From the IMG/VR virus record IMGVR_UViG_2974731955_000001, positions 34,827 to 98,826 of that record: a DNA stretch of 64,000 bases; one strand, given 5' to 3'. Both the position numbers and the translations under genes were made by a program. Source of the stretch: a virus. Taxonomy: Duplodnaviria; Caudoviricetes. Every line of letters starts with the position of its first letter. The stretch's first letter is position 1. This document shows, in pieces, positions 4,559 through 22,023 of this stretch. The notes beneath the pieces were generated by a model, which had not been told where the DNA came from, ran no database searches, and worked only from the letters and a program-made list of their open reading frames with translations.

Positions 4559-4639
4559 CATAGTATAAGAACTGTACTATGTCTTATTAGGTTTATTGGA
4601 AACTATTAGGACGAGGGTTCGATTCCCTCCAACTCCACA
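4559..4639 (+). ncRNA. ssrA: tmRNA acceptor piece (3' part of the tRNA-like domain) of a permuted two-piece tmRNA
   Basis: ACTATTA-GGAC-GAGGG-TTCGATT-CCCTC-CAACTCC-A: helix-2 strand, GGAC motif, T arm, 3' acceptor strand and discriminator A. The 5' boundary is uncertain. Confidence 0.85.
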
Positions 4640-4741
4640 TCTTTTTAAGTTTTAATTCGGTGATGTCACGCATGAATCATGGATAAAAGAATACGGCAGT
4701 AATCGCTTCCAGTACTATAAGTTCGTAATAGTATAAGGATA

Positions 4742-4790
4742 CCTGCCACCCACGGTCAGAAGCATAGAGGTTCGACTCCTCTTGGCAAGG
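4742..4790 (+). ncRNA. Mini tRNA-like element inside the tmRNA intervening segment
   Basis: TGCCA/TGGCA stem plus T arm AGAGG-TTCGACT-CCTCT (4766-4782). No canonical D or anticodon arm. Confidence 0.45.
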
Positions 4791-4851
4791 GTATAAACCA
4801 CTCCTAGATTAAAAGCCGCAAAGCTTCCAAGCAGGTGTGAGGCCTGCATAA

Positions 4852-4980
4852 GGGGTTGCATGGATTTGACTAGTAGTGAAAGGTAAAATAGGTTCGATTT
4901 AAAATTAAATGGCAATAACTTTGTCACAGATTATACTGCGATAGGAGCGTAATCTAACGTGCTAACTACGAAAGTGAGGG
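4852..4980 (+). ncRNA. ssrA: tmRNA coding piece (5' part of the tRNA-like domain plus tag ORF GNNFVTDYTAIGA*)
   Basis: GGGGTTG pairs with CAACTCC (4630-4636) including G3.U70. It is followed by CATGGATTTGAC and TAGTAGT (pairs with 4602-4608). Resume context AATTAAAT|GGC, tag ORF 4911-4952. Confidence 0.85.
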
Positions 4981-5053
4981 TATCTGATAGCTTAATGGTC
5001 AAAGCCTTGGATTTTACCAAGAGATTGTGGGTTCGAGTCCCACTCAGATAACA
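4981..5053 (+). tRNA. Non-canonical tRNA with a shortened anticodon arm (6-nt loop ATTTTA; possibly Lys-derived, anticodon undetermined)
   Basis: Acceptor TATCTGA/TCAGATA, D stem GCTT/AAGC, anticodon stem CTTGG/CCAAG, T arm GTGGG-TTCGAGT-CCCAC. Confidence 0.75.
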
Positions 5054-5085
5054 ACTTTTTATTAATCAATAATAATTAAAAGCGT

Positions 5086-5454
5086 ATGGATGTAAAATAC
5101 GAAAGTAAAAGACTAGTAATGTTTCGAAAGGAATGTATACTAGCAGGTCCTAGAGACTCTGTAGTAGGATTCTTTAGGTTTTTGAAGGAATTAGGGGCAG
5201 ATGTAGCCAAAACAGTTAATTCTGAAAATCTAGTAACTTCAAGAGGAAAAATAGTTCTTCTTCTTAAAAATGAGGGGAAAAATAAATTATTTCCACAAGT
5301 AACTGTGTTAAATAGAACATGGTGGGATTTCTACCATAATCCTAGAAAACACAAAACTAAGATTAAAACATACAATCTTCCAAAACAATGGAAACAAGTA
5401 TGTGAAAGTATCTTAATCCTTGAAAATGTACCACTATTAATTCCTGAATCATGA
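5086..5454 (+). CDS. Hypothetical protein
   Basis: 122-aa ORF, followed by an overlapping ~58-aa ORF (5451-5627). Confidence 0.7.
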   Translation: MDVKYESKRLVMFRKECILAGPRDSVVGFFRFLKELGADVAKTVNSENLVTSRGKIVLLLKNEGKNKLFPQVTVLNRTWWDFYHNPRKHKTKIKTYNLPKQWKQVCESILILENVPLLIPES

Positions 5455-5628
5455 AACTTGAACATTGGATTTATTTTGAAAAAGGAGAAAAAGCAAAACT
5501 CCAAGAAATAATGAATACTTACTCTGAAGAGTTTCAACAACTTGAGGCAATTCAGAAAGAATTTGAAGTTGATATGCTAACAGCTTCTAGAGTAATCAAT
5601 ATATATAATAATAAAATAAGAAAGTAAC

Positions 5629-6120
5629 ATGAAGGCGGGAATTTATCTAGTTAAAGACAAATTTAGTGAAGCTAAGCATCTACTATCTTTAAATGGTAAA
5701 GAACCATTTATAAGAATAGAGAATTGCATTAGTTTATCTGAATTTGCATGTGGTAAACTTGAAAAGGATCATTGTGTAGTAAAAGAAATTCTAGAAAATC
5801 CAGAGAATTTCGAGTTCTCTCTATTATCAAATGAAGTTGAGAAAACATTAGAAATAAGAGAAGAACCAGAAGAATTACCTACACTATCTGATGATGAATA
5901 CATGAGAATTACTCAAGATGAGTTCATTCAACCTGATGGAGAACTTAGTCAAGTACTAGCGATAGCAGAAATTAATGCTGTCTTTCATACAGACTGGGAT
6001 AAATCTCGTGAGATCTTTACAAACATAGTATTACCTAGATATGAGGCAGAAAAATGGGAAAGACTTCAGTTAAAGAATCGCTCATCTTCAATCAGCGAGG
6101 CGACCTCTGTGATAAGCTAA
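5629..6120 (+). CDS. Hypothetical acidic protein
   Basis: 163-aa ORF in an operon-like arrangement. Confidence 0.7.
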   Translation: MKAGIYLVKDKFSEAKHLLSLNGKEPFIRIENCISLSEFACGKLEKDHCVVKEILENPENFEFSLLSNEVEKTLEIREEPEELPTLSDDEYMRITQDEFIQPDGELSQVLAIAEINAVFHTDWDKSREIFTNIVLPRYEAEKWERLQLKNRSSSISEATSVIS

Positions 6121-6554
6121 AAACATTTTTACTACAGGAGTGTGATAAAGCATATATACCAACATGTACAGATCAAGGCTTTCGCTTTGATTGGAAAATT
6201 ATAGGTCTAGAGTATGAAAAATACTTTGGATATCCACATTTAGGTAAAGATGGTACTATGTATCCTATAAAACCAAATGATATCTCTTTTGAAGTATGGC
6301 AGAAAGCTATACCCCAAGTAAGAGAATGGATTTGGTGGGTATCCTACAAATTATTTTATCCTACAAGAATAATAGGTCGTAGTAACGCTGCTGATAGAGT
6401 ACTGTTAAGAATTTCAGTATCTCTACTTGACAAAATAGAGTTACCTAAATATTATATAGATAATATGTTTGATAATCTAGTAGTATGTTATTACTCTAGA
6501 AAAAGAGCATATAATTCATATTTCTATAAAAGTATTTTAGGTATACCATTTTAG
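6054..6554 (+). CDS. Hypothetical protein
   Basis: 166-aa ORF overlapping the upstream gene. Confidence 0.7.
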   Translation: MGKTSVKESLIFNQRGDLCDKLKTFLLQECDKAYIPTCTDQGFRFDWKIIGLEYEKYFGYPHLGKDGTMYPIKPNDISFEVWQKAIPQVREWIWWVSYKLFYPTRIIGRSNAADRVLLRISVSLLDKIELPKYYIDNMFDNLVVCYYSRKRAYNSYFYKSILGIPF

Positions 6555-6633
6555 TTTAGAAATAAGGAAGTGTAATAAGATTTGCCTACTTTCAGACAAG
6601 ATTGCTGTGTCGTCGCAGAGGGCGTTCTAAACA

Positions 6634-6664
6634 AAGTACTAGAGGTTCGACTCCTCTAGTACTT
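6634..6664 (+). other. tRNA minihelix-like hairpin (12-bp stem plus T loop)
   Basis: AAGTACTAGAGG-TTCGACT-CCTCTAGTACTT is a perfect 7+5 bp stem, 20 nt upstream of the sigma factor ATG. Confidence 0.7.
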
Positions 6665-6684
6665 ACTAACCAAACTGCTAGTTT

Positions 6685-7242
6685 ATGAATGATGAAAACT
6701 CATTAATAGACCAAGCGAAACGTGGTGATGAAAAGGCTTTTAATCAATTATATAATCGGTATTATAAATTGATAAGATATATTATTTTTGACATTGTTAA
6801 AGATGATAATCTTACTCAAGATTTATTGAGTAATACATTTATAAAAGCCTTCGGTAAACTCAATTCCTATGTAAATCCTATAAGCTTCGAAGCGTGGCTC
6901 AAAACAATTGCAGTAAATACTACAATTGATTATATTAGAGCCTCGAAGGATTTACAAAAGAATTTCAGCATAGATGATGAGAATAATAAGACTCAATTAG
7001 AAGAAACAGCTCCAGATCCCGAATCAGATATGATTAAAACAGAGAATGTAGAACTTCTTAGAGTTGCATTATCTCGCCTAAGATCTAAATATCGTAATTT
7101 ACTCGAGATGCGATATTTTGAAGGTCTTAGTTACGATCAACTTAGCGTTAAGCTTGGTATTCCTATTGGTACTGTAAAGTCCGATTTGAACAAAGCAAAA
7201 CATAAGTTGAGAGAAATATTTCAAAAACTTTCAAAAAATTAA
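6685..7242 (+). CDS. ECF-type sigma-70 family sigma factor
   Basis: Region 2 (GDEKAFNQLY...DLLSNTFIKAF...FEAWLKTIAVNTTIDYIR) and region 4 HTH (GLSYDQLSVKLGIPIGTVKSDLNKAKHKLR). Confidence 0.92.
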   Translation: MNDENSLIDQAKRGDEKAFNQLYNRYYKLIRYIIFDIVKDDNLTQDLLSNTFIKAFGKLNSYVNPISFEAWLKTIAVNTTIDYIRASKDLQKNFSIDDENNKTQLEETAPDPESDMIKTENVELLRVALSRLRSKYRNLLEMRYFEGLSYDQLSVKLGIPIGTVKSDLNKAKHKLREIFQKLSKN

Positions 7243-7248
7243 CAAAAC

Positions 7249-7638
7249 ATGACAACAACATCTTTCATCTGTATGTTAGTTGCTTTGGTTTTACTAATTG
7301 TTGCAATTGGTAGAGTACAAGGCAGTCCAAAAGTAGCTGCGAATCTTTTGATCGCTTTAGCTTTTGGAGTTGTTGTAGGCTTAGGAATCAATAGTAAGAA
7401 TGACATTCGTAAGTCATCTAAAAATGATACTAAGATTGAGAAGATCTCTAATGTAAACCAATTGCCCATACAGGCTATGCAGATTATTGGAGTGACACCA
7501 GTAATTACTGCAACAGTTGAGTCTGTAGGTAAGGCTCATAATTGGTTTATTAGAGATCAAGGAGACCTACAACAAAGTGTAAACCATCTCACCTATGTGA
7601 GTACTAGGGCCAGCCCTATATACGAGGATTCAAGTTAG
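7249..7638 (+). CDS. Membrane protein with two N-terminal TM helices
   Basis: Two hydrophobic helices. Starts 6 nt after the sigma factor stop. Confidence 0.75.
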   Translation: MTTTSFICMLVALVLLIVAIGRVQGSPKVAANLLIALAFGVVVGLGINSKNDIRKSSKNDTKIEKISNVNQLPIQAMQIIGVTPVITATVESVGKAHNWFIRDQGDLQQSVNHLTYVSTRASPIYEDSS

Positions 7639-7728
7639 ATTACAAGAATTTATCGGGATCATCGTATGTATAATTATTAGTTTAACAATTAAAACGCTGT
7701 AAAAAGGACAGTATAAAATCAATTTAAA

Positions 7729-9150
7729 ATGTCTAAAAATAAGAACAACAAAAACTCTCAGCAAGCAGTAGCTACTGAGAAGGAAAAGGAGAATAAGAAC
7801 GTGCAGACTACTGCACAAGTAAGTAACCCCACAAAGAAGGAGGACAAGCCAAAAGCTGATCCAAAACCTAAGAAAGATAAGGAACAGACGGCTACTCCAC
7901 CACCTGCAGCAGATCCTTCAGTAATTGATGCTACTAAAACAGCAGAAGTTATTGATCCGGAACCAAAAAAGAAATCCAATATCCCGAAGAAGATCGATCT
8001 TGCTAAGATTTCACTGACCACTAGTCAACGATTATCCGGTGATGGTTTTGCTCGTATGTTGGATGTAGCAGAGCGCTATATCTCTCGTATGAAAGCAGGT
8101 GAGCCAGCAACCATTAAGATGGAGCAGGCGTTCACTTATAATCTTGCTTGGGGCATCACAAAGATGTCAATTCAGGCTCGTGAGGAGAAGATTGAGTATG
8201 GTCTTAATGTACCGAATGATGATGTTATTGTAACTGATATCATTGATACATTCAATAGCCTTGGAGTGGCATTAGCTCCACATGTCTCTGAAGATGGCAA
8301 GCAAATGACGCTTGAGTTTCAGGAGATTAGTCCAGAAGCAGAGAAAGCAGCCAAAGAAGAGATCAAACAAGAGAAGACTCCGGTTGTTCCAGAGTTAGAT
8401 CCTGACAAATGGAAGAGTGAAGACGATGCAAAGAAAGGATTATCTTATATTCTTGCAAAACAAGATCAGTCATTTCCAAATCGGTTTAATGAAACTTTAT
8501 TAAAGGTTCGTACCTTTAAGAAAAATCAGGAGACAGATGAAGAAAAAAAGGCTGTATGGGACAAGATTGGTTTAGGTGCCCTATTCGAGAACGCAGTTCA
8601 ACTATTAGGAAACCGCTCAACTGCTCTTGTTCGTGGATTATGTCAAGGATGTGTATCTGCCTTAATTACGGATCACAATCCGATATTTGCTCATTCAACA
8701 GTTAAGTATAACTTACCAATGTTGTCTGAGGAAGAGGCCGCTGACTTGATTAAATCCTTTATTAAAGTACGTCAGGAAGATCCTAAACTTCCTATTGACG
8801 AGACTCCAGCTGTTAAGTTTGGTATTCTTGAGGCAACTCGTGAACAGTTCCTTAACATTCCAATGGATAACGAAATGCCGTTAGCCGAAATGGGATTGAA
8901 GAAGGATGATCCAAAGTACAAACAGATTACTCTGGCTAAGAAGATTATGAATAAGTTCCTTGAAGCGTATGGAAATGAAATCGGATATGATGATCCGAAA
9001 TTCTATTTACATGCGACTAACAAGATGATCGAAATTCGTAATCTATATGTCGATAAAGATGCGGCATTTACACCGTATACTGAAAGTGAATATCCAAAAA
9101 CTACTTCTACGGAAACTGCAGATCCTGAGAAGAAGAAAGAGGGTAAGTAA
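7729..9150 (+). CDS. Hypothetical protein with a disordered K/P/E-rich N-terminus
   Basis: 473-aa ORF. No family recognised. Confidence 0.85.
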   Translation: MSKNKNNKNSQQAVATEKEKENKNVQTTAQVSNPTKKEDKPKADPKPKKDKEQTATPPPAADPSVIDATKTAEVIDPEPKKKSNIPKKIDLAKISLTTSQRLSGDGFARMLDVAERYISRMKAGEPATIKMEQAFTYNLAWGITKMSIQAREEKIEYGLNVPNDDVIVTDIIDTFNSLGVALAPHVSEDGKQMTLEFQEISPEAEKAAKEEIKQEKTPVVPELDPDKWKSEDDAKKGLSYILAKQDQSFPNRFNETLLKVRTFKKNQETDEEKKAVWDKIGLGALFENAVQLLGNRSTALVRGLCQGCVSALITDHNPIFAHSTVKYNLPMLSEEEAADLIKSFIKVRQEDPKLPIDETPAVKFGILEATREQFLNIPMDNEMPLAEMGLKKDDPKYKQITLAKKIMNKFLEAYGNEIGYDDPKFYLHATNKMIEIRNLYVDKDAAFTPYTESEYPKTTSTETADPEKKKEGK

Positions 9151-9176
9151 GTAATTATTATTAAACCATTATCAAA

Positions 9177-9578
9177 ATGAATACACATGGTAATCTACTT
9201 ACGTATATCGCATTTGCTATTGTAGGTTTATTATTAGCTTACAATACGAACTTCTTTAAATTAGAGGAAGTTCGGGCAGACCCAGTAAAACCACTAGATT
9301 TGCCCGCATTACAGTTTAATCCTAAAGCTAATTTATCTTTAGAGATTGATCTAGACAAAGGTGTTTCCAACGTAAAAAGCGATATGCCGATTGCTAACGT
9401 TGATGTCACTGTCAATCACCCCACGAAACTCGTGGAAAAGGTAGTAAAGAAACCATCTAAGAAGGAGGTAATATATGAAACAAAAACTGAATATTTGGAG
9501 AAAGTAGTGATGTTTACTCTACCTACTCCTCACTTTCACGTACCAAGTATTCAGATCCCTAAAAGCGTAGAGAGATGA
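9177..9578 (+). CDS. Membrane-anchored or secreted hypothetical protein
   Basis: N-terminal hydrophobic helix (LLTYIAFAIVGLLLAY). Confidence 0.75.
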   Translation: MNTHGNLLTYIAFAIVGLLLAYNTNFFKLEEVRADPVKPLDLPALQFNPKANLSLEIDLDKGVSNVKSDMPIANVDVTVNHPTKLVEKVVKKPSKKEVIYETKTEYLEKVVMFTLPTPHFHVPSIQIPKSVER

Positions 9579-9670
9579 AAGCAAATAATAATACATTAGA
9601 TAAATTAGCATTTGTAGGCTTAATTATCTTCTTTATAATGTGTTTATTTTTTGCATGGTGTATAACATAA
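9575..9670 (+). CDS. 31-aa single-TM peptide (MKANNNTLDKLAFVGLIIFFIMCLFFAWCIT)
   Basis: ATGA overlap with the upstream stop and a hydrophobic helix. Not in the ORF track. Confidence 0.55.
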   Translation: MKANNNTLDKLAFVGLIIFFIMCLFFAWCIT

Positions 9671-12075
9671 CAGTTAAAGATAAAAGCTGTCAGGTCAAAC
9701 GACTCCTTACCTGTAATAAGAAGAAGAAGAGTGATATTGTAGCTGTACACTTAAAAAGCAATAAGATAGCGCATATTATATTTGGATGAGTCTGATCAAC
9801 AAATCGTATAATATGGACAAGAAAGACAGGATACGAGGATATGATAGTGCTAACACACGATTCAAAAGGTAGTATGATAACTTATTAAGAGTATTTTTTC
9901 TTTTACTCAGAAAAATTAATAAGAAAATGGGTAAGTGTAGATATCAACCCATTCTATTTATATATTGAGAACCGCTTGGAGAATATATAAATTAGAGAAG
10001 ACACTTATTAATACTTATCGATAAAGTAGAGAACTATTAATATAAACGATACCGGAGTATGCTTAAGCAGCTACCAATAATATTTAGTGACAGTAAATAT
10101 TATTATGTCTAGAGTAAAGACAGTAGTCAACTTCGTTAAGAGTCCGTGGAGGAAACCAATCCTGAAATCAAGAAGGGACTTTAAACAGCAACTGCAACTA
10201 TCACAAAGGGTGATAGAATTACTCAACAAAGAACTGACTAAGTTCCAGGTAGTGTCCAAAGCTACCTTACTGAATCCATTTTAATTAATTTGGATAGGTT
10301 AAATAAATTGCTATCTTAGTGTTCACTGCATCAGTTTTGAAACGCTTATATGAAAGAATATAGGGAAAATGTAGTTATGAAGGAGATTAGATATAATAGA
10401 GGGTGCTATAAGGTGCTACGAGTCTAAATAGAGTAGAATCAATTTCTACAACTTTTACTCTTGGAAGTAAAGGTTAATAGTAGGTATTACTAGTAAGATT
10501 CATATGGCTGAGAGGCTATGATCCATACATGGGAAAGTAGATAATCGAGACTATCTATGGATATTGTATGACAGATTATCCGGATTAGGTGCCAAACCTA
10601 TACTTTATAGAACTATTATATCAAACGTGATAGTGTTTTCTGCAATTGAGTTATATCACGATAAAATAATGGAAACGCAGAGGTTTGAAGAAGTGAGCCA
10701 AATCATTAGTTCATATTATAGAATATATCTGGCAAGTATAGTATATAAGGAGAAACTTATATTTTATCTATAGTAAGTTTAATCCACTTAATACGAATCT
10801 TTACGTCAGTAACACAGCTGTTGGTTGATATCCATAAATTGTGCAAAGTTCAGTTAAAGCTTTCCTTAAAATATACAGCGAAAGTAGGGCTTCGTGAATA
10901 AGCCAATGGGCTAAATTCAAGTCTATGAAAGTAGAGCTACTGAATCTAACGATTCATCACTGGCCCGAGAGTTAACGAGACTCTTAAATAAAAGCGTTAT
11001 TAACATGTTTAACCAAAGTAGTGGCTACACCCACGAAATAGTAAATTATCGAGAAGTCCTCGCTGGTCTTATTATAGTGAATGAGCTACTGTTGTTAAGT
11101 AGAGAGTAACTTAGGATGAATGCGACTCGATCAAGCCAACCGTTATAGCTAAAAGAAAACTATTAGAGTTATATTACCGCAATGATATAATGTTCAATAG
11201 AAAGCGTTTCGCAGAAGCTTATAGACCTTTAGACCTGTCGTAAGCAAGAGTAAGCGGAAATAGGTGAAAGTCCTAGATATTCGTGCTTGTAAAACAAACA
11301 AATCCTCGTAAGGGTCACATGGGCAGTATACTGCATGTGAAAGAATAGAGTGGTAACCACTTCAGGGTGAAAAGACTGAAAGAGTTAGGTTTAGTAACGT
11401 TTCCTTAAACGACCGTATGTGTGGAGCATTCGATAAAGTAATCCTATGTGGTTTATTATAACTATCAGTATACTTAGGCCAATCTAAGGTATACACACTT
11501 TCTAGTGTATTTGTTTTGATAAGATTATAATAGTTCGCTGAAGAAGCTCAGGAATTTATAAAACTAGTAGCATGTGCATATCCCTATCAATATACAGCGG
11601 TAGAAGATAGTAAATAACGTATTGATCTTGTGACTTATTAGTCAATGTCGTAAGATCTCATTAGTCTGATGTTGGGCAAACGTAGTGGACCATTTAGGCC
11701 ATGACACGAACCTTCATTGACGAGTATGAAGAGTAAAGAAAGATTCTAAAGTAAGACTAGTTCCATAATCTGTGGTGATGAAAACACAGTATTTAAGAAG
11801 AGGAAGTATCTACTTAAATATGTCTCTATGGAGTGCTAGAGTAATAGCAATAGCAGAATTACAGAGTGAAATAGAATCCAATCTATCTCATCAAGTATAA
11901 AGAAATAATTTCAAGGAGTAAGCAATTGAATTTGCGTAGGCGATCGGATAACAGGCAACTGGGCAACAAACTCCCCTATAAGAGAAAACTCCAGTAAAGA
12001 AGTTCTTTTTATTTTTGAGTTTATTAATTTTTTAACAACATTTTAAAAGTTTCGTTGGTGGAATCAACCACGAAA
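9671..12075 (+). ncRNA. Candidate giant structured ncRNA, or cluster of ncRNAs (~2.4 kb)
   Basis: No credible ORF. More than 20 local hairpins plus nested long-range helices. Strand inferred from the flanking genes and from G.U-compatible pairs. Confidence 0.6.
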
Positions 12076-12092
12076 TCAAGGAGGAAACAATT

Positions 12093-12626
12093 ATGAATTA
12101 TATTCGAGTAAATGCCGCCATTTGCGGTTCAGTATTAGGTAAAAAGATTCTAATCGTAGAACGGAATCCAGTAGATCCAAATTATTCAGAGGATAAGAAA
12201 AACGGACGGTTGTGTCTCAGTCGCCCTATTTATCTTTATTCTATTAAGCCGATTGATGTATCTTCAGTCGAGCTTGTAACTACAGCAAATGGTGAGGAAC
12301 GGATTGAGTTTAATCATGAGCCGACATTACGGCTAGATATTGCAAATGTTGAGGATATCAATAAAGTAATTCCCGTTCCATCGGCAGCCAGTGTACGTGC
12401 AGCTATTGAGAAGTACGAACGGTCTAAAGAAGATATTACTATCTTCGTCGATTACGAAAAATTATTACGGGAAGTAATTGCGCTAAATCTTGACGAGAAG
12501 AAGACTTATGCAGCATGGTTGTCTTATCAGATGAAGTTGTGCGGCACATTAGCCGAGGCAAACGAAGCTGAGATTGCAGCTTGTAAAGCGAGTATGAAAG
12601 AGTTTGGAATTGAGATTAATCTTTAA
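12093..12626 (+). CDS. Hypothetical protein
   Basis: 177-aa ORF preceded by a hairpin and AAGGAGG (12078-12084). Confidence 0.8.
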   Translation: MNYIRVNAAICGSVLGKKILIVERNPVDPNYSEDKKNGRLCLSRPIYLYSIKPIDVSSVELVTTANGEERIEFNHEPTLRLDIANVEDINKVIPVPSAASVRAAIEKYERSKEDITIFVDYEKLLREVIALNLDEKKTYAAWLSYQMKLCGTLAEANEAEIAACKASMKEFGIEINL

Positions 12627-12631
12627 TCGCA

Positions 12632-13162
12632 ATGGATGCCCTAAGTAAATGGGCATGGTTCGATCTTTGTTATATGTTCTCTGATAGAGATTTTGTTAGT
12701 GATATGCTAGAAACAGATGAGAAAGTTCTAGCAAAACATGTTACGGTAAACAAAGATGGATCAGTGACTCTAAAAAAAACAAAATATTCTTGGATTAATA
12801 AATTATTCCGAGGTGAGATTGTACTCAGTCCAGAGACAATTTGTCTTCGACTGATTAGGAAAGTAACCGGTTACGGTGGTGGTCGAAATGACGCTGCATA
12901 CAATGATTTGTGTCAACGTTTTTCTGAATATTATAAAGACGGAAATTATAGTTTGGCTATTTCCGCAATATTTGTGGCTTATCGTTTTGTTCTAGCTCCA
13001 GATATAAAACAAATGCAAGAGAATAATCCCGTAGTTGAGAGAGGGGTTATTCGTAAAAATTCAAATGTTTTATTAAATGGAGTTATGGTAAAAGACGGTT
13101 CAGGTCAAGCTGTTGTAGTTGATTGGTCTGATCCCAATCAAATTCTATTTCGTCGTCCATAA
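12632..13162 (+). CDS. Hypothetical protein
   Basis: 176-aa ORF starting 5 nt after the previous gene. Confidence 0.8.
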   Translation: MDALSKWAWFDLCYMFSDRDFVSDMLETDEKVLAKHVTVNKDGSVTLKKTKYSWINKLFRGEIVLSPETICLRLIRKVTGYGGGRNDAAYNDLCQRFSEYYKDGNYSLAISAIFVAYRFVLAPDIKQMQENNPVVERGVIRKNSNVLLNGVMVKDGSGQAVVVDWSDPNQILFRRP

Positions 13163-13242
13163 AAATCGACAATCCTAAGTAAGAATAATATTGACAGTAG
13201 ATGAGTTTTGTTAATATTATATCTTACTCAAGATATTTACTA

Positions 13243-13273
13243 AAAGAGAGACAGATGAGTTACGTCTCTCTTT
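13243..13273 (+). terminator. Hairpin, possible intrinsic terminator
   Basis: AAAGAGAGAC...GTCTCTCTTT inverted repeat with only a short U tract. Confidence 0.4.
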
Positions 13274-13442
13274 AAATATGGACGTGATAATGTATCTGTA
13301 ATGGATACTAAGTAGATGGCTAGCTCCAAGAATAAGACGGAGATGCTATATCGAGGATAGACACGTCCTCACGGGTAGTTGATCAAATTCAAGTATAAAT
13401 CGATTTAGACAAGATGAGTATTAATTTAAAATCAATTTGTAT

Positions 13443-13952
13443 ATGAAGACAAAATCAACGGAAATTAAAACAAAATTAGAGAAGTTACACAAAGATATCT
13501 CTTGGCAGTGGAATATCATTCGTAGTGAGAACAAAGTTGAGAAAGGTTATAAACGTCGTTATGATATGAAATCCTTACTTGAGGATATCTTCAGTAAAGC
13601 AGAGGAGCGAATTCAGTGTAAACTAGATCAGCTCTGTATAAATATGGGATTTAAGTCTCGTGCGGACTTACCAAAAGACTGTATTTATCCTACTATCTTC
13701 AAGTTGTCTGAGGTAAATGAGCAATATGTTCAAATTGGTATTATTATCGATAAGGCAACAATTGATCCTTCTTATAAGATGAAAAAAGGTAAGAAGAATC
13801 TAAAAGAAGAAGAGGAACTTACTCGTGACTTCTTAAATAAGATGAAGAATAATTTGCAATTGCAGATTATCGATCTTAAAAAGAAACTGGCTGACTTCAA
13901 TGATGCTGCGGAGTTAGATCTAGATAAGGCTTATATGTATTTAGCAGCATAA
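13443..13952 (+). CDS. Helical hypothetical protein (weak resemblance to DIP1984-like proteins), ends in YLAA
   Basis: ORF track 13437..13952, with ATG at 13443. The family resemblance is by eye only. Confidence 0.7.
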   Translation: MKTKSTEIKTKLEKLHKDISWQWNIIRSENKVEKGYKRRYDMKSLLEDIFSKAEERIQCKLDQLCINMGFKSRADLPKDCIYPTIFKLSEVNEQYVQIGIIIDKATIDPSYKMKKGKKNLKEEEELTRDFLNKMKNNLQLQIIDLKKKLADFNDAAELDLDKAYMYLAA

Positions 13953-13958
13953 GGAATT

Positions 13959-14026
13959 GATCTATCGTCTCCATTAAGTTGGATAAAAGATCTGGCAAGT
14001 CGGGTTCGAATCCCGGATAGATCTCA
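13959..14026 (+). ncRNA. tRNA-like element lacking a normal anticodon arm
   Basis: Acceptor GATCTAT/ATAGATC, T arm TCGGG-TTCGAAT-CCCGG and a 34-nt interior with one small hairpin. Confidence 0.65.
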
Positions 14027-14067
14027 AGTCTCGAATCTATTATTAACACTTTAAATTATCAAAATTT

Positions 14068-15210
14068 ATGGAAACTAAAGATATCAAATCTAAAGAAAAG
14101 AAAGCAACACTTTTAGATAAAGCAAAAGCATACAAAGAATTAATTATTAAGAATGCAAATGATCTTGCGGATCGGATTCTCAATAAAGCAATTGCCAAAG
14201 AAGAACAAGAAAAAGCTTGGCAAAAAAGAAAAAAAGAACTTAAAGCAGAAGCTGATAAAAAACGTAAAGAAGCTGCTTTAAAGAAGCGAGAGGAGAAAGC
14301 AAAGAAACTTATCTCTATTCATACTTCAATTCCTAGTAAAGATACTTCTGAAAAGCAAAAGAAGATCGATAAGGATATTGAAAAGAAACATGATGAAAAG
14401 ATGATTGCTAGTGAGACTAAATATGAAGATTGGTCACCTAAGCAACAGAAGCTTACTAAAGAAGAGAGGATTGAGCGTAATAAAAAACGTGCAATTAAAC
14501 TTATTCATCATGAAGAAGTTAAAGATAAAATAAAGCATACTACAGCTGAAGAGAGAGAAGCAAGTGCGGCAGAGCAACGTCGTATTGCTTACCAAAATTA
14601 TCTAGCTGAAATGCAACGTCAACAATCTGAAAAAGAAGCTGATCCAAAAGCAGCTGCAGAACGTAAAGAAAAACGTTTAACGGCGAAGAAAGATCGTATG
14701 CAGATGTTGGCAGAGAAACGAATTAAGCGAATGGAAAGACTCCAAATCGTTGAGTTAACTCAGAAGCAAAAGTTAGCTAAGGATCTTGAACACTTCAAAC
14801 AAGCACAAGAAGCTCGAAATGCTAAAAAGAAAGAGCAACGAGCCAAATATCTTACTAAGGGTGGAAAAGAAGTTCCCAAAGTAAAGAACAAAGTTGATAT
14901 AAGACCAACGATAATTGAGAACAAAGTAGATAACAAACATCGTTATATTACTAGAACTCAACATATTGAAAAAAATACACCTATTGGGGAGACAGTAGGC
15001 GCTATCATCTGTATACCTACAAAGTTAAAGGATATTGTAAAATATAACTTTAACAAATTAATGGAGAAAGAATCCGATAATCTAGTTGGAATCTTTATCT
15101 ATGATAGCGATAATCCTGAAGTGTGTATAATGGAAATGGTTAATTCAAAATATCGTGAGATAGATGGAGTAACTACTACGCGCATGAATCAGGAAAAACA
15201 AGCAGCATAA
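14068..15210 (+). CDS. Lys/Glu-rich coiled-coil protein
   Basis: 380-aa, highly charged helical ORF with a small C-terminal globular region. Confidence 0.85.
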   Translation: METKDIKSKEKKATLLDKAKAYKELIIKNANDLADRILNKAIAKEEQEKAWQKRKKELKAEADKKRKEAALKKREEKAKKLISIHTSIPSKDTSEKQKKIDKDIEKKHDEKMIASETKYEDWSPKQQKLTKEERIERNKKRAIKLIHHEEVKDKIKHTTAEEREASAAEQRRIAYQNYLAEMQRQQSEKEADPKAAAERKEKRLTAKKDRMQMLAEKRIKRMERLQIVELTQKQKLAKDLEHFKQAQEARNAKKKEQRAKYLTKGGKEVPKVKNKVDIRPTIIENKVDNKHRYITRTQHIEKNTPIGETVGAIICIPTKLKDIVKYNFNKLMEKESDNLVGIFIYDSDNPEVCIMEMVNSKYREIDGVTTTRMNQEKQAA

Positions 15211-15258
15211 GCTGATATTCGTCTATGAAACAGGGGCGCGTCTGTTCAACGCGCAAAT

Positions 15259-15339
15259 GATCCACTCGTCTATTGGTTAGGACGCAAGATTTTCTTGAGT
15301 GAAAATTTGAAAAAAAGTTCGATTCTTTTGTGGATCACA
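15259..15339 (+). tRNA. tRNA-Glu(TTC)-derived element with a remodelled anticodon arm
   Basis: Acceptor GATCCAC/GTGGATC, Glu-type D arm TCGTCTATTGGTTAGGAC, then GCAAGATTTTC followed by a non-canonical extension. T arm AAAAG-TTCGATT-CTTTT. Confidence 0.65.
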
Positions 15340-15353
15340 TAAATTCCATAGCT

Positions 15354-17270: not shown

Positions 17271-17313
17271 CAAAGCGTATCATATCATGTCAGGTTCTTA
17301 AAAGAAGAAGAAC

Positions 17314-17874
17314 ATGATCATTGAACTAGATACAAATCTAATGGAAACATTAGATATTTCAATAAATCAGCTAGTATTTTTAAGTCTTGTATTAGATAAG
17401 AATCAAAAGTCCAATCAAGGTATCACAACCATTATTCGCCGGGTCAGTGATAATGAGATACAAGACTTAATCGATAGAAATTTTATTCAAAAGAAAGACG
17501 ATAGTAAAAAAGTAACATATAAACCTACTAAGGAATTAGTAGATAAATTAACTCCTAAAGATATACTTTTCGAGCAATTTTATATGTTATATCCTATCAT
17601 GGTTACTAGACCAGATGGAACTAGAGGCTTTCTTAGAAGTAATCTAAAGAAATGTAGAGAATATTATAACAAATTAGTTAAAGGTAATCCCGATCTTCAT
17701 AACAGAATCGTAACTGCTTTAAACTTTGAGCTTACTGATAAGGCAATGACAGGAAAGCTTGGTTATATGAAAACTATGTGGAAATGGCTTACTTCACATG
17801 AATGGGAATTACTTGAAGAACAAATGAATGCTAACCAATCTGTATTTCAAAGTTATGGAACAGAATTACGATAA
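17314..17874 (+). CDS. Replication-associated protein (possible wHTH initiator or helicase loader)
   Basis: Lies between the polymerase and helicase genes. Has an FEQFYMLYP motif of the type seen in phage replication organisers. Confidence 0.55.
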   Translation: MIIELDTNLMETLDISINQLVFLSLVLDKNQKSNQGITTIIRRVSDNEIQDLIDRNFIQKKDDSKKVTYKPTKELVDKLTPKDILFEQFYMLYPIMVTRPDGTRGFLRSNLKKCREYYNKLVKGNPDLHNRIVTALNFELTDKAMTGKLGYMKTMWKWLTSHEWELLEEQMNANQSVFQSYGTELR

Positions 17875-18766
17875 CTTACCTATCTTTAAACATATATCTG
17901 AAGTAACAGAAGATACTAAAGAATATATTAAAAAGAGACAAAATCATGAAATTGAACCATTAAAAACAAGATGGAATAAATTTAATGAAATGTGTAGTAT
18001 AGAACCTGGCATGGTTTGTACTATAGCAGGTATATCAGGAACTGGTAAGTCTTCATTTGTAAATACGTTACAAACTGATTTAATTGAACTTAATCCTAAT
18101 CAAGATATAGTTATTCTTTCTTTCTCGTTTGAGATGCTTAGCCGTGCACAAGTAGGAAGAACTTTATCTAATAAGTTGCATCAAACAACTAAGGCTTTGT
18201 ATTCTTTAAAAGATATTTCATTAAACGAAATAGATAATACTTTAAATACAATTAAAGATTATCCAATATATTTTGTTGATGAATATCTAACAGTACAACA
18301 AATAGATAAAACTATATCATATTTTCAAGAAACTATTGCTAAAGATAAATGGTTAATCATAGTACTAGATCATACTTTATTAGTTAGTAGTGATAATTAT
18401 AAAGATGAAAGAATGATTATATCAGAACTTGAAAAAGTATTTATTAAAGCAAAGAAAATTGGAAAAACTACAATTTTTCAATTATCTCAAATGAATAGAA
18501 ATATTGAAAATATAGATAGGATTAATAATCCATCGGCTCACTATCCGATGAGAAGTGATTTATCTGCATCTGATTCTGTATTTCAAGGAAGTGATGTTAT
18601 AGCTGTCTTACATAGACCTGAAATTTTAAATTTGATGGCATATGGCGTTCAAAGACTACCCGTACAAAATCGTATATATCTTCATTTTCTTAAAGTAAGA
18701 GAAGGAGAATTAGCGATACTTGAATTTGAAAACGACCTGAAATATAACAACCTAATTGAATTATAG
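17855..18766 (+). CDS. DnaB-like (SF4) replicative helicase
   Basis: Walker A GISGTGKS, SFEM, VLDH, LSQMNR, SDLSASDSVFQGSDVI and KVREG motifs. Confidence 0.9.
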   Translation: MEQNYDNLPIFKHISEVTEDTKEYIKKRQNHEIEPLKTRWNKFNEMCSIEPGMVCTIAGISGTGKSSFVNTLQTDLIELNPNQDIVILSFSFEMLSRAQVGRTLSNKLHQTTKALYSLKDISLNEIDNTLNTIKDYPIYFVDEYLTVQQIDKTISYFQETIAKDKWLIIVLDHTLLVSSDNYKDERMIISELEKVFIKAKKIGKTTIFQLSQMNRNIENIDRINNPSAHYPMRSDLSASDSVFQGSDVIAVLHRPEILNLMAYGVQRLPVQNRIYLHFLKVREGELAILEFENDLKYNNLIEL

Positions 18767-18783
18767 ATAAAGATTTTTATTAA

Positions 18784-19299
18784 TTGGTTAAAATTTTGGC
18801 GAATATGACAACAGTATTTAATTCAAACGGCAACAATAAGAAATTTAACGAGAACAATAACTTTGATTATAAAATCGATTTGACTAAGTATTTCGCTACT
18901 CCTACTACAAAGTATCATAGTGACTATACGTCAGATATTCTGAATAAGATTCGATCGATCTTTCCGTGGGCTACAAAGAAGAACGATACTTCTTATACTA
19001 TTACTCTAGATAATGCTCCTATTGAGTCTTATACTCTATTAGGCGTTACTCCTGAGGCATTAAATCTTGAATGGAATAAGGCAGCTTCTCGCCTGTATGA
19101 TTATATTTATTATACAGAGAATCCGTCCTATGACTTCATGATCGGTGGTATTCCGGTTAAGATTCATGGGAATTACATTCAAGTTGGTACGAAGATTGTT
19201 CCGAAGTTTACGACTTCGAAATTCTTTAATAACTTATCTAAGAAAGAGCAGATTATTATTTATAATATTTCTATAAATATTAATGCAATTTCTGCATAA
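18784..19299 (+). CDS. Hypothetical protein
   Basis: 171-aa ORF, start uncertain. Confidence 0.65.
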   Translation: MVKILANMTTVFNSNGNNKKFNENNNFDYKIDLTKYFATPTTKYHSDYTSDILNKIRSIFPWATKKNDTSYTITLDNAPIESYTLLGVTPEALNLEWNKAASRLYDYIYYTENPSYDFMIGGIPVKIHGNYIQVGTKIVPKFTTSKFFNNLSKKEQIIIYNISININAISA

Positions 19300-19395
19300 T
19301 TAAAATAAACAGATCTTTTCAGAATTTTTTCAAATATTATCGAACTGTATCAAACTTTTTCATTCATTTCTGAAAAGTAGATAAAACTTCAATTT

Positions 19396-19869
19396 ATGAT
19401 AGTATTACCTACTGAAAAAGTCAAGGCAAAAGTAAATAATCCACGATTTTTAATTATATACGGTCGTCCAAAGACCGGTAAAACCTCTTGTGTAGCGGCT
19501 CTAGAAAACAATTTGATTATTGATCTTGAAGGTGGATCTGAATTTTTAGATTGTTTGTCTATACAAGCAAGATCTGTAGCAGATTTAGGTGATATTGCAA
19601 ATGCAATTAGAACTAAAATTAAAGAAACTGGAGTAAAGCCATATAAATTTATTACTCTAGATAATGCTACACGACTAGAAGAAATATGTCTATCTTATGC
19701 AGCTACGCTTTATAAAGCGCAACCTCAAGGTAAATCTTGGCAAGGTACAGACGTTAGATTATTACCACAAGGAAGTGGATATCAATATATTCGTCTAGCT
19801 GTAAGAAAAGTAATAGATATGTTTAAAGAACTTACAGATAATCTTATTTTAATTGGTCACACTAAGGAT
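19396..19869 (+). CDS. AAA/Sak4-like ATPase, exon 1
   Basis: Walker A YGRPKTGKT, IDLEGG, TLDN. The frame breaks after LIGHTKD at the intron. Confidence 0.85.
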
Positions 19870-20874
19870 TAAAAATAGTCCCTTTAGCTGGTAACAGTTA
19901 TAGCAAATCTCTTGAATTGCTGGAAACTCTTCTATAAATAGAACACATATACTGTTATAACGTTAATATGATATATGTACAATTTATATAAGACAATCAG
20001 CAGCTATGGAAAAATATAGTATTTTAGATAAAAAAACAATAATAGGACAAAATAAAAAAGGTAAAACTTATAGATATTTAATACAAGTAAAATGTAATGA
20101 TTGTGGACATATTAAATGGGTAAATCCATCTAATCCTTTTTATAAAAAAGGAATATGTAGAAAATGCAATGAATCTAATTATAGAAATCAAGTATTAAAT
20201 ATTGAAAATGATACTTTTAAGGTTCTTTCTATCGATAATGAAAGTACTGCAAAAAATCCTCGTCATACAAAATATTTTGTACAATGTAAAAGATGTGGAA
20301 AAATTTTTAGTAGACGAGCGAGTGTAATACGAAAAAGTTTAGAAAGTGTTGTTTGTTCTAATTGTAGAAAACTTCGAAATAATAAACCATTAAACGTTAT
20401 AAAATATAAAGAATACTGTTATTATAGATCTGGTGCAAAAGCTAGAAATTTAGAATGGAATTTAACGGAAGAACAATTTGCACATTTAATAAATCAAAAT
20501 TGTGTATATTGCGGAGAAAAGCCTTCTAAAAAACAAACAGTATCTTATAAAAATGAATATGAATTAGTAAATGGTATAGATAGAATAGATTCTTCTAAAG
20601 GATATACAGTTAATAACTGTGTACCTTGTTGCAGTAAGTGTAATCTTATGAAAAATAATTTTAAGAAAGAAGAATTTTTACAACATATAACTAAAATATA
20701 TAATTATTCTATTAGTTCAACGACTATCCCGAAAGGGAGTACATTCGAAGCTAATGCGAATGGAAGCGAGAGAATTCCTAACAAAAGGAATATGATATAG
20801 TCTATTCTACATGGTGACATGTAGCAGTTCATAAGAGAACGTATACAAACTTGCGAATTGTATAGAATATTAAG
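19870..20874 (+). mobile_element. Group I self-splicing intron carrying a homing endonuclease
   Basis: Exon ends in U, which pairs with G of the IGS (GTCC). P (AATTGCTGGAAACTC), Q (AATCAGCAG), R (TTCAACGACTA) and S (ATGATATAGTC) elements are present. Terminal G at 20874. Splicing restores GHTKD|KLINKNGED in frame. Confidence 0.9.
20006..20800 (+). CDS. Intron-encoded HNH homing endonuclease with CxxC zinc motifs
   Basis: CVYCG...NGIDRIDSSKGYTVNNCVPCCSKCNLMK, plus several N-terminal CxxC pairs. Confidence 0.88.
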   Translation: MEKYSILDKKTIIGQNKKGKTYRYLIQVKCNDCGHIKWVNPSNPFYKKGICRKCNESNYRNQVLNIENDTFKVLSIDNESTAKNPRHTKYFVQCKRCGKIFSRRASVIRKSLESVVCSNCRKLRNNKPLNVIKYKEYCYYRSGAKARNLEWNLTEEQFAHLINQNCVYCGEKPSKKQTVSYKNEYELVNGIDRIDSSKGYTVNNCVPCCSKCNLMKNNFKKEEFLQHITKIYNYSISSTTIPKGSTFEANANGSERIPNKRNMI

Positions 20875-21147
20875 AAATTGATCAATAAAAATGGTGAAGA
20901 TATGACAGAAATGTCCTTAGATTTAGTAGGTAAACTAGGGGATATTGTCTGTGGAGAAGCAGATGCTGTAGGTTTTATGTATAGAAAAGGTAATCAAACC
21001 ATTGTTAATTTTGATAGTGGTGATGATACTACAAAAGGTGCTAGAGCACCACACATTAGAGAAAAAAGAATCGTTTTAGCTGAAAGCGATGAAAATGGAA
21101 ATTTAAGTTTTCATTGGAATAAAATTTATTTGCCAGACCAAGAATAA
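20875..21147 (+). CDS. AAA/Sak4-like ATPase, exon 2 (spliced product 248 aa)
   Basis: In frame with exon 1 after intron removal. EADAVGFMYR is typical of this family's C-terminal half. Confidence 0.85.
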   Translation, partial: KLINKNGEDMTEMSLDLVGKLGDIVCGEADAVGFMYRKGNQTIVNFDSGDDTTKGARAPHIREKRIVLAESDENGNLSFHWNKIYLPDQE

Positions 21148-21165
21148 CCAAAATAATAGAATAAG

Positions 21166-21798
21166 ATGATTTACAGTTCACAAAGAGCACAAGCAATCCA
21201 AAAGAAAGATGTAGCATATTTAGGTGCAGGTATCCAAGATAATGTAGTATTAGAAGCAATTAGAGTTGATAAATCCATTAATGGAAATAACTTTATTGAA
21301 TTTAAGTTTACTGCAAAAGATGGTAAATTTATGACCCATACTGAATGGGAACCATCTAAAGGTCCTAATATGACTGATGAAGATCTACAGAAGAAGTGTG
21401 ATAACCAATTCTCTAGAATCGATCAAATCCTAGAATGTTACTATCCTAATAAGGAAGATCGAGTATTTACCGGTGAGAGTTTTAAAGAATTCATCGAATG
21501 GGTTGCTGAAATGCTTAATAAAGCAGACAGATCTACATTACTTCGTATTAAAGTAGTATATAACAATAGTGGTTATACTACACTTCCGAAGTATGCAAAA
21601 TATAGATTTATCGAACCTATGTCAATAGTAGATAAAAATGAATCAGTAATTGTCAAGTTAAACATTGATAATTTTGAGAAACCTATTATTGCAGATGTAG
21701 AGCAGTCTAATCCAAATCCACTAACATCTAGTTCATTTGTAATAACAGATGGAACTTTAGATAATACAGAAGATAATCCTAACGGATTACCATTTTAA
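21166..21798 (+). CDS. Putative single-stranded DNA-binding protein
   Basis: Follows the Sak4-like gene and has an acidic tail ending GLPF, like SSB C-terminal tips. Confidence 0.65.
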   Translation: MIYSSQRAQAIQKKDVAYLGAGIQDNVVLEAIRVDKSINGNNFIEFKFTAKDGKFMTHTEWEPSKGPNMTDEDLQKKCDNQFSRIDQILECYYPNKEDRVFTGESFKEFIEWVAEMLNKADRSTLLRIKVVYNNSGYTTLPKYAKYRFIEPMSIVDKNESVIVKLNIDNFEKPIIADVEQSNPNPLTSSSFVITDGTLDNTEDNPNGLPF

Positions 21799-21915
21799 AA
21801 ATATAAAGCTATTCGTACGATAGAACGAAAACTATACGGCCTCTGACTTTTGTCATGTAAGTATACCAGATCGTAGGCTGGCACTGACCACACAGGGGGT
21901 ATTGTAAAGGTGGAA

Positions 21916-22023
21916 GAAGAGTAAGCACATAACTATAATAGTTAAGCAGATGTGTGAATGGGCCTAATACAAACGCTAACTAGCGTGTATTTAAATGGGG
22001 CGGTTCGAGTCCGCCACTCTTCA
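21916..22023 (+). ncRNA. tRNA-like element with an enlarged non-canonical interior
   Basis: Acceptor GAAGAGT/ACTCTTC, T arm GGCGG-TTCGAGT-CCGCC. Interior hairpins do not form canonical D or anticodon arms. Confidence 0.6.

Follow-up and report, generated by a model that had tools for sequence, protein, structure and literature searches.

Candidate processing marks built from tRNA-like elements in the early and replication region of a crAss-like phage

Why should a phage place structures resembling transfer RNA (tRNA), none of them with a standard anticodon loop, between its early and replication genes? The question is raised by a 64,000-nucleotide stretch of DNA (positions 34,827 to 98,826 of the IMG/VR virus record IMGVR_UViG_2974731955_000001, hereafter the window) that carries six such elements, here called A to F. 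By megablast against phage records the window belongs to a crAss-like phage of the family Suoliviridae, subfamily Boorivirinae, its matches being the uncultured crAss-like phages cr55_1 and cr1_1 (Culoivirus) and cr10_1 (Canhaevirus), all of the same family and subfamily. The anatomy of the elements, their synteny, the covariation of their stems and the exchange of cassettes between them are direct observations. By analogy with organellar systems, I suggest, at about an even chance, that the elements are cis-acting marks at which RNase P and RNase Z process the + strand early/replication transcript or transcripts.

Seven T arms and six elements

A scan of both strands of the window for a 5-bp stem around TTC[GA]AN[TC] found seven T arms on the + strand (at 4613, 4766, 5027, 6641, 14000, 15313 and 21999) and, on the - strand, two weak TTCAA matches only. 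The sequence GTTCGANTC occurs in seven copies, all on the + strand, where 0.77 would be expected (standard deviation 0.81), and none of 100 dinucleotide shuffles reaches seven. All seven T arms are intergenic, on the coding strand and between 4.6 and 22 kb. That at 4613 belongs to the acceptor piece of a permuted transfer-messenger RNA (tmRNA) gene, the remaining six define elements A to F, and the whole 98.8-kb genome holds one T arm besides these, that of element Z. The features, with the open reading frames (ORFs) that they precede, are as follows.

4584-4637, + strand: tmRNA acceptor piece; T arm 4613-4629, 3' acceptor strand CAACTCC 4630-4636, discriminator A4637
4742-4790, + strand: element A, in the tmRNA spacer 4638-4851; T arm 4766-4782; CCTGCCA/TGGCA(A)GG, 6 bp and a bulge
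4852-4980, + strand: tmRNA coding piece; starts with GGGGTTG, 3' end abuts B
4981-5052, + strand: element B; acceptor stem 4981-4987/5044-5050, T arm 5027-5043, A5051, C5052
6634-6665, + strand: element C; perfect 12-bp minihelix (7+5), loop TTCGACT, then A-C-U-A-A; 20 nt before the start of the extracytoplasmic function (ECF) sigma factor gene at 6685
13959-14035, + strand: element D; acceptor stem GATCTAT/ATAGATC, D-loop-like TTAAGTTGG, T arm 14000-14016, discriminator T14024
15236-15254, + strand: leader hairpin 5' of E; 5 bp, GYGCG/CGCRC, after ACAGGGG
15259-15337, + strand: element E; acceptor stem GATCCAC/GTGGATC, D arm, T arm 15313-15329, A15337; 17 nt before the DNA polymerase ATG 15354
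21916-22023, + strand: element F (allele F1); acceptor stem GAAGAGT/ACTCTTC, T arm 21999-22015, A22023; 25 nt before the primase ATG 22048
Genome 34414-34488 (85-158 of locus L086; some 340-410 nt before the window begins): element Z, about 25 nt before an ORF

All six elements claimed in a preliminary description of this DNA were recovered in place, and its account of their shared parts held up. Each has a 5-bp T stem, and directly 3' of the T arm lies an acceptor-like strand that pairs at 7/7 bp in B, C, D, E and F and over 6 bp with a bulged A in A. The T arm reported as identical over 18 nt is real (4765-4782 in A, 6640-6657 in C), as is the closeness of five of the elements to a start codon, which follows the 3' end after about 33 nt in B, 20 in C, about 43 in D, 17 in E and 25 in F. 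The primase starts at ATG 22048 and not at ATG 21958, which falls within F.

The same description had the anticodon arm altered in all six. No 7-nt anticodon loop is found in any of them (the loop has 6 nt in B, 6 nt on an 8-bp stem in E and 4 nt in F, and the arm is absent from A, C and D), but B is nevertheless a near-complete tRNA, derived from tRNA-Lys(UUU), and it alone passes the Rfam tRNA model (RF00005; 54.4 bits against a gathering score of 29 bits). At an E-value of 10 or below, A, D, E and F gave no Rfam tRNA match in narrow searches and C gave none in a scan of the whole window; F matched only tRNA-Sec, at 13.6 bits. ARAGORN reads E as tRNA-Ser(tga), but this call has no Rfam counterpart. 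As a set, then, the six elements are not tRNAs by the Rfam covariance-model test. A standard anticodon loop is absent throughout the genome, which therefore carries no standard decoding tRNA, and no element is a decoding-competent anti-defence replacement tRNA.

Folded with ViennaRNA, B and E are cloverleaves, C is a 12-bp minihelix, and D has an acceptor stem that encloses a second hairpin and the T arm, without an anticodon arm. Acceptor/T-arm minihelices are in vitro model substrates of RNase P, RNase Z and the CCA-adding enzyme, and end in (A)CCA. Their geometry of a 12-bp (7+5) acceptor/T-stem helix, a 7-nt T loop and an unpaired discriminator is found in B to F, and A has 6+5 bp with a bulge. 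The encoded 3' end is N73-C74 alone, namely A-C in B, C, E, F and the tmRNA and T-C in D, as against RCCA. A 3' RCCA favours bacterial type A RNase P, and precursors without CCA follow the RNase Z route.

Slots and cassettes in related phages

The comparison set was about 80 related loci. Slots B to F are syntenic across Boorivirinae, and over all loci 60 of the 83 distinct elements end at most 50 nt from the next ORF start. In the sister subfamily Loutivirinae, cr56_1 has three elements. Its polymerase slot holds a tRNA-like element with a long insertion (Rfam 33.8 bits) and its primase slot a cloverleaf with non-anticodon arms, and an acceptor/T-arm element of about 41 nt with a 10-nt linker stands before the early gene gp12 and is counted apart from slot B. 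At one slot the middle of the element ranges from a true tRNA through loops of 6, 4 or 9 nt and a palindromic hairpin to nothing at all.

Slot B adjoins the tmRNA, whose acceptor piece lies upstream of its coding piece (Rfam RF04321, 60.3 bits; gathering score 47). The strands CAACTCC and GGGGTTG pair to give G3.U70, and the tag GNNFVTDYTAIGA* is encoded at 4911-4952. The permuted tmRNA is conserved in relatives, with covariation; its acceptor stem reads CAACTCC/GGGGTTG, CAGCTCC/GGGGCTG or ATTCTCC/GGGGAAT in the window, loci L058-L082 and L002. Element B starts directly after the conserved 3' tail of the coding piece, an arrangement that agrees with the earlier suggestion that B could define the 3' end of that piece.

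Element B has a D arm with GG and an anticodon stem (5006-5010/5017-5021) closed by the 6-nt loop ATTTTA (5011-5016), so that Rfam aligns it with one loop position deleted and ARAGORN reports a 2-nt 'anticodon'. The same two-base call, which reflects the loop ATTTTA, is made in 26 of 27 clade-1 loci, and among the aligned sequences, the window plus 13 distinct ones from clade 1, the loop never varies and the stem covaries (CCTGA/TCAGG versus CTTGG/CCAAG). Over 16 distinct sequences, 96% of cells are paired and ten pairs have changed on both sides, a count that none of 500 shuffles reaches; five of the seven acceptor pairs have changed on both sides, and position 1:72 is often mismatched. Elsewhere slot B holds a 7-nt Lys(TTT) loop (Culoivirus cr55_1 and cr1_1) or a 4-bp stem with a 4-nt loop (cr10_1). 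Because its stem covaries and its 6-nt loop is conserved, B is not decaying randomly; the odd loop is maintained in one clade, with other loops tolerated elsewhere. A Y RNA-like YrlA (Rfam RF02553, threshold 69 bits) was not detected, the best score being 15.2 bits, overlapping B. The further element Z, which ARAGORN reads as tRNA-Cys(aca), scores 48.6 bits on the Rfam tRNA model; its anticodon loop has 9 nt and its first pair is mismatched (A1.A72). In Culoivirus (L001 2959-3468, L003 2945-3454) an HNH endonuclease gene on the opposite strand lies just upstream of the tRNA-Lys, in the place of the window's tmRNA gene, and ARAGORN finds no tmRNA there.

Element A lies inside the excised spacer between the tmRNA pieces, outside the Rfam tmRNA model. 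This spacer is hypervariable in relatives (about 15 to 330 nt, of unrelated sequence). The T arm of A is present in the window and cr10_1 only and its 5' strand in the window only, and a metagenome contig of at least 90% identity here joins 4629 to 4861 via 38 other bases and thus has no A. On this distribution A is lineage-specific and the weakest candidate for a conserved function.

At slot C the helix strands are AAGTACTAGAGG and CCTCTAGTACTT in the window and AAATGTTAGGGG and CCCCTAACATTT in cr10_1, again 12 bp, of another sequence, and in Culoivirus a hairpin of 12 bp fills the slot, closed by 6 nt that do not form a T loop. The trailer ACTAA, followed by the sigma factor start, is found in all four lineages compared, as is the 12-bp helix (12 bp is the length of acceptor plus T stem) despite the changes in stem and loop. 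Slot C conserves a 12-bp helix and its trailer, not a sequence or a loop.

Between a stop codon 6 nt upstream and the ORF at 14068, about 43 nt downstream, lies element D. It has GGCAAG and the T arm, then the conserved trailer CAAGTCTCGAA (14025-14035), and is without an anticodon arm. Three acceptor haplotypes occur (GATCTAT/ATAGATC, GATTTGT/ACGAATC and TGGTCTC/GAGACCA), differing at up to all seven pairs and each paired at 7/7; they were read directly, as a cross-clade MAFFT alignment put the 5' acceptor strand out of register, and no pair counts were taken from it. GGCAAG with the T arm and the trailer are invariant, and the interior varies from 34 to about 100 nt among clades (28-83 nt before GGCAAG) and forms a long hairpin with a hypervariable tip. 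Slot D holds tRNA-like genes in cr10_1 (6-nt loop; Rfam 54.1 bits) and in a phage of 55% polymerase identity, whose copy scores 31.1 bits and has a palindromic hairpin with a 4-nt loop. The trailer CAAGTCTCGAA resembles D's own T-arm segment GGCAAGTCGGGTTCGAATC minus GGGT, and can pair with the palindromic T loop TTCGAA. Perfect palindromes replace the anticodon arm in several relatives (CTATATAAGCGCTTATATAG, CTATATATCCGGATATATAG and ATAAGCAATTGCTTAT at L004 9945-9964, L055 9945-9964 and L045 about 7737-7752), and even the 4-nt 'loop' is self-complementary, which hints at a constraint at the level of DNA or of a dimer.

The flanks of slot E are homologous in all lineages, with an ACAGGGG and hairpin leader and an A-C...ATAGCT-ATG trailer. 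The hairpin is 100% paired in clade 1, with a double change from U-A to C-G between clade 1 and the window. In the 64 kb ACAGGGG is found just twice, once before E and once before F at a distance of about 25 nt (15230-15254; 21892-21898), and CAGAGGG lies 18 nt upstream of C (6616-6622); the motif could be a leader, promoter or processing motif. Between these flanks stand different cassettes. In Culoivirus it is a tRNA-Val(CAC) with a conserved 7-nt loop and a covarying anticodon stem; these tRNAs (L001 14090-14162, L018, L042), otherwise canonical, are mismatched at 1:72 (A.A or C.A) in every variant seen. A different element, of 90 nt, fills the slot in clade 1 and so also in L055, the nearest relative; the polymerase of L055 is 95% identical over the 73 N-terminal residues in the locus, and the rest of the contig (L015) is 98% identical. 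The window has a third cassette, whose cloverleaf has a D arm and anticodon stem matching phage tRNA-Gln and a collapsed anticodon loop. Exact-word searches of IMG/VR for this allele gave nothing for a 23-mer and, for a 17-mer, an unrelated phage tRNA-Gln and three chance or coding matches; in a metagenome contig, 15260-15348 is replaced by 96 other bases. The clade-1 E acceptor is 100% paired, with four of seven pairs changed on both sides, and variable columns are concentrated there (9/14, against 21/144 elsewhere, p=1e-4; interior 7/58). Two polymerase alleles (about 18% nucleotide difference, about 0.22 at four-fold sites) segregate among otherwise near-identical clade-1 genomes (L004-L039, locus 10001-11911), and the E acceptor haplotypes are uncoupled from them, which points to frequent recombination.

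Slot F has two alleles. F1, that of the window, is a four-way junction of 96-150 nt in which arm 1 carries tip insertions of 0-65 nt and arm 2 a 4-nt loop. The junction folds in the relatives' copies; the minimum free energy structure of the window copy keeps the acceptor stem alone, so that the alignment is what supports the junction there. Pairing is 100% at all 26 pairs, three of them with double changes, in the T stem and arm 2, and the acceptor is invariant. F2 is a mini element of about 54 nt with a D-loop-like AATGGTTAG and a GGGG/CCCC hairpin. The two share their flanks, ...AAAGGTGGA, cassette, A-C-T-T...ATATCATATG, and their distribution cuts across the phylogeny, the contig of the nearest relative (L015) having F2. 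From these comparisons the alternative cassettes of E and of F swap at the boundaries of the acceptor stem, leaving leader and A-C trailer unchanged.

The elements had been described as one family. The slots instead form a set filled by different tRNA-derived cassettes, neither a family by single descent nor the outcome of simple decay. Chance is ruled out, and plain decay is unlikely. The earlier view that acceptor sequences differ yet stay paired is borne out by compensatory changes in the related loci, and the view that selection on the acceptor/T-arm module explains the pattern better than random decay is favoured by the synteny of B to F, the stems kept paired through double changes and the 12-bp helix kept at slot C. 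The stems do covary as was proposed, but the interior is not uniformly variable; the loop and stem of B and the interiors of clade-1 E and F1 are conserved. It had also been said that intact tRNAs in close relatives together with unbiased decay would speak against selection. Intact tRNAs do occur, Val(CAC) at E and a canonical-looking Lys(UUU) at B, but the divergence is strongly biased, and the idea of selection therefore survives them.

Proposed processing marks and rival readings

What could tie such disparate cassettes together? Common to them are acceptor and T stems stacked into about 12 bp, together with a T loop, in most cases a GG that can serve as elbow partner, and an unpaired discriminator, usually A, ahead of a C. 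These make up the top half of a tRNA, the part that RNase P, RNase Z and the CCA-adding enzyme recognise. If the elements are processing marks, the genes around them would be transcribed as polycistronic RNA. RNase P would cut at the 5' edge of an element and so make the 3' end of the upstream RNA, including that of the tmRNA coding piece at B, and RNase Z would cut after the discriminator, so that the downstream mRNA would start 17-43 nt before its start codon, with an A/U-rich leader that would suit Bacteroidota-type initiation; expression of the genes might be affected in turn. A slot could be filled by a real tRNA (such as Val-CAC in Culoivirus) or by any cassette that retains the top half, and the anticodon arm, being unneeded for cutting, would be free to shrink, grow or be replaced. 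I favour punctuation because of the fixed leader positions, the strand specificity, the interchange of tRNA, cassette and minihelix, and the presence of a Hatchet self-cleaving ribozyme in another slot.

Several points weigh against processing marks. Proximity to start codons is weak evidence, because any intergenic element in a compact genome sits near one. The conserved loop and stem of B and interiors of clade-1 E and F1 point to selection beyond a top-half signal. Element A is not conserved, F2 gives 11 bp instead of 12 with the non-consensus loop ATCGTTA, and the clade-1 copy of C keeps the geometry but with two mismatches. In slots C to F of six relatives no self-cleaving ribozyme was found, Hatchet and RAGATH being confined to the far-upstream early region. 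That several interiors are more conserved than a cutting signal would require is among the reasons why I place my confidence in processing marks no higher than halfway.

Those same interiors are what one would expect if the elements were released as small tRNA-like RNAs acting in trans, as decoys, sponges or regulators, their position merely giving early expression; possible targets are tRNA-directed defence nucleases, acceptor-stem toxins and tRNA-binding or tRNA-modifying enzymes. Such a role, which I consider unlikely although not negligibly so, is compatible with RNase P/Z processing as the release step. The variation of clade-1 E, concentrated in the acceptor and decoupled from the polymerase allele, and the cassette polymorphism of E and F in natural populations resemble an arms race, and B derives from tRNA-Lys(UUU), a classic target of anticodon nucleases. 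However, phage tRNA or decoy genes are normally clustered, whereas these occupy fixed gene-specific slots across subfamilies; C is a bare minihelix, without a T loop in Culoivirus; the F1 acceptor is invariant; and hypervariable stems would be expected too if pairing alone were constrained. The proposal that the elements are decoys for anticodon nucleases is unlikely to hold, since no anticodon loop remains and the substrate is not mimicked. A bolder form makes the slots arms-race loci, in which exchangeable tRNA-mimic cassettes, once cut out, counter the host's tRNA-directed immunity in trans or take over enzymes that handle tRNA. Its signs would be the hypervariable but paired E acceptors, the conserved non-anticodon interiors (E, F1 and the AUUUUA of B) and the population-level swapping, and one module would then serve for both punctuation and counter-defence; I give this only an outside chance. 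Quite unlikely, too, is that the elements stay uncut and act in cis, as structures in the 5' untranslated region or at the 3' end that hinder exonucleases, or by tuning translation or transcription (attenuation, pausing), the tRNA shape being a convenient inherited stable fold. The fixed 5'-leader positions 17-43 nt from start codons, the companion motifs upstream (ACAGGGG and hairpin at E, ACAGGGG at F, CAGAGGG at C) and the position of D just past a stop codon, like a 3'-end cap, suit this idea, but a generic hairpin needs no T-loop consensus, 7+5 bp geometry or GG elbow in nearly every slot and lineage, and no element is followed by a U run.

Two further explanations start from tRNAs proper. 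The elements could be relics, once-useful phage tRNA genes in decay, in which the acceptor and T arms are the last parts to go, through chance or through slow mutation of G+C-rich stems. Intact tRNAs stand at B and E in relatives, several of the relatives' elements still exceed the Rfam tRNA threshold, window E resembles a tRNA-Gln with a collapsed anticodon loop, A is lineage-specific, and a genome with the standard code and ORFs to 4774 aa has no need of suppressor tRNAs. Yet many stem columns vary and 96-100% of cells are still paired, thanks to compensatory double changes. Across subfamilies the slots are refilled and not lost, and slot C keeps helix length, not sequence; moreover, compact phage genomes usually shed dead DNA. 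Relics are therefore highly unlikely. Still more improbable is that B, with its 6-nt loop, and Z, with its 9-nt loop, are working tRNAs with non-standard decoding (frameshift, doublet or quadruplet) and the other elements are unrelated to them. Both score well on the Rfam tRNA model and have intact D and T arms and elbow residues, and the invariant ATTTTA on a covarying stem in clade 1 would fit. However, no frameshifted or interrupted genes were seen, the long ORFs being intact under code 11, the 1:72 pair of B is often mismatched and the slot B loop of cr10_1 has just 4 nt. Natural decoding tRNAs are not known to have anticodon loops of 6 nt.

If the elements are processing marks, the closest described system is, by analogy, the t-elements of plant mitochondria, reportedly described by Hanic-Joyce and Gray in 1990. 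These likewise combine a GGTTCRANYCC T arm and an acceptor stem in a non-canonical cloverleaf and lie in mRNA leaders and trailers beside true tRNAs. The motif is matched by A, B, C, D and F; E departs from it (AGTTCGATTCT) yet retains the 5-bp stem and the loop. Plant-mitochondrial t-elements with this motif mark mRNA ends through RNase P and RNase Z; the ends map to the edges of the element, C, CC or CCA is added without a template, and both enzymes are implicated (Forner et al., 2007, PMC1920247). They are, however, organellar and few per genome, with experimentally mapped ends, whereas the phage elements are known from sequence. The phage set differs further in that its operon slots are syntenic across a virus family, show cassette polymorphism and range from a 12-bp minihelix to a 108-nt four-way junction.

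The mitochondrial tRNA punctuation model, in which tRNAs between genes serve as cutting signals, is said to go back to Ojala, Montoya and Attardi in 1981. The Culoivirus tRNA-Val before the polymerase and tRNA-Lys before the first early gene fit it directly, although animal-mitochondrial tRNAs also decode and the window phage has no standard anticodon loop. As to minihelix substrates, C has exactly 7+5 bp, a 7-nt T loop and an unpaired A, and its 12-bp length is conserved across lineages, but the phage elements encode A-C only. In mammals, mascRNA/MALAT1 and MEN-beta reportedly undergo tRNA-like 3'-end processing (Wilusz et al., 2008). There too RNase P and RNase Z cut at a non-decoding tRNA-like fold carried by a long transcript, setting RNA ends and releasing a small RNA, but the system is eukaryotic, concerns single loci and an RNA that is CCA-tailed and exported, and involves no operon punctuation. 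Phage tRNA genes and pseudo-tRNAs share a tRNA origin with the elements: B is Lys(UUU)-derived, window E is tRNA-Gln-like and relatives have tRNA-Val. The tRNA-Lys of phage T5 is said to counter the PARIS defence; anti-defence phage tRNAs are, however, clustered and decoding-competent with 7-nt loops, whereas the window elements are dispersed, gene-specific and anticodon-defective.

None of the papers searched connects crAss-like phages with tRNA-like processing elements or reports punctuation of phage mRNAs by the tRNA machinery. Punctuation itself is known; what would be new, again by analogy, is t-element or tRNA punctuation in a phage family, with syntenic and exchangeable slots. crAss-like phages are among the most abundant gut viruses. 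Should the processing-mark reading be true, a whole phage family would punctuate its messages with the host's tRNA-trimming machinery, a strategy established for mitochondria, which would explain both the 'pseudo-tRNAs' and undetermined tRNAs that annotators report in crAss-like genomes and how a two-piece phage tmRNA gets its ends. The slots would also help in studying the in vivo requirements of the processing enzymes, since a single locus runs naturally from true tRNA to 12-bp minihelix. At the same time, the cassette polymorphism and fast-evolving acceptor stems leave room for a second, immune-related role.

Genomic context

Small early genes, the ECF sigma factor (6685-7242, identified by Pfam), a DnaB-type helicase, the DNA polymerase and a DnaG-type primase lie on the + strand, in the first 26 kb or so. 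On the - strand are huge late ORFs, up to 4774 aa and unbroken under code 11, for which reason stop-codon recoding was rejected as the cause of the odd tRNAs. Sigma-70 promoter-like sites in the window are not above shuffles (100 versus 86.6), and in a terminator scan no + strand terminator-like site adjoins any element. An ECF promoter motif, AAC-N16/17-CGT[TC], was also discarded; it has eight matches on the + strand and six on the - strand, and a single one overlaps an element (E), as chance would give.

Besides the permuted tmRNA (4584-4952) and one tRNA (4981-5051), the Rfam calls in the window are two.

1965-2092, + strand: Hatchet self-cleaving ribozyme, intergenic, 82 bits; context, outside the finding
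3962-4128, early + strand region: RAGATH-22, intergenic, 155.6 bits

Hatchet is also present in cr10_1 and cr56_1. RAGATH-9 and RAGATH-20 have sub-threshold matches in early + strand intergenic slots (2938-3070 and 3962-4141, listed with RAGATH-22); RAGATH-9 is shared by cr10_1 and cr56_1, the second of which alone has RAGATH-7 and RAGATH-20.

A stretch of about 2.5 kb at 9580-12090 is free of ORFs under codes 11 and 4 and with TAG=Q or TAA=Q, the alternative codes having been rejected because they fail to open the gap of 9.6-12.1 kb. From about 10.36 kb it falls inside the megablast match of about 80% identity to cr55_1/cr1_1, and cr55_1, cr1_1 and cr10_1 have an unannotated gap of 2.1-2.5 kb in its place. 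No RNA run with the window as raw reads was among those that a run search listed. Two wastewater libraries labelled RNA-Seq, whose RNA status is a guess, have contigs matching only 6-7% of sampled window words. These map mainly to 9.2-13.1 kb (eight of nine pieces of X19 and six of the eight listed pieces of X20) and cover no element, and one 34-nt piece matches the tmRNA T arm but has unlike flanks. The stretch at 9580-12090 may be a large, abundant non-coding RNA. A second, shorter intergenic stretch of 275 nt at 13162-13437 has a predicted fold of -71.6 kcal/mol over 291 nt, with hairpins of 13 bp and 9 bp, and is not tRNA-like.

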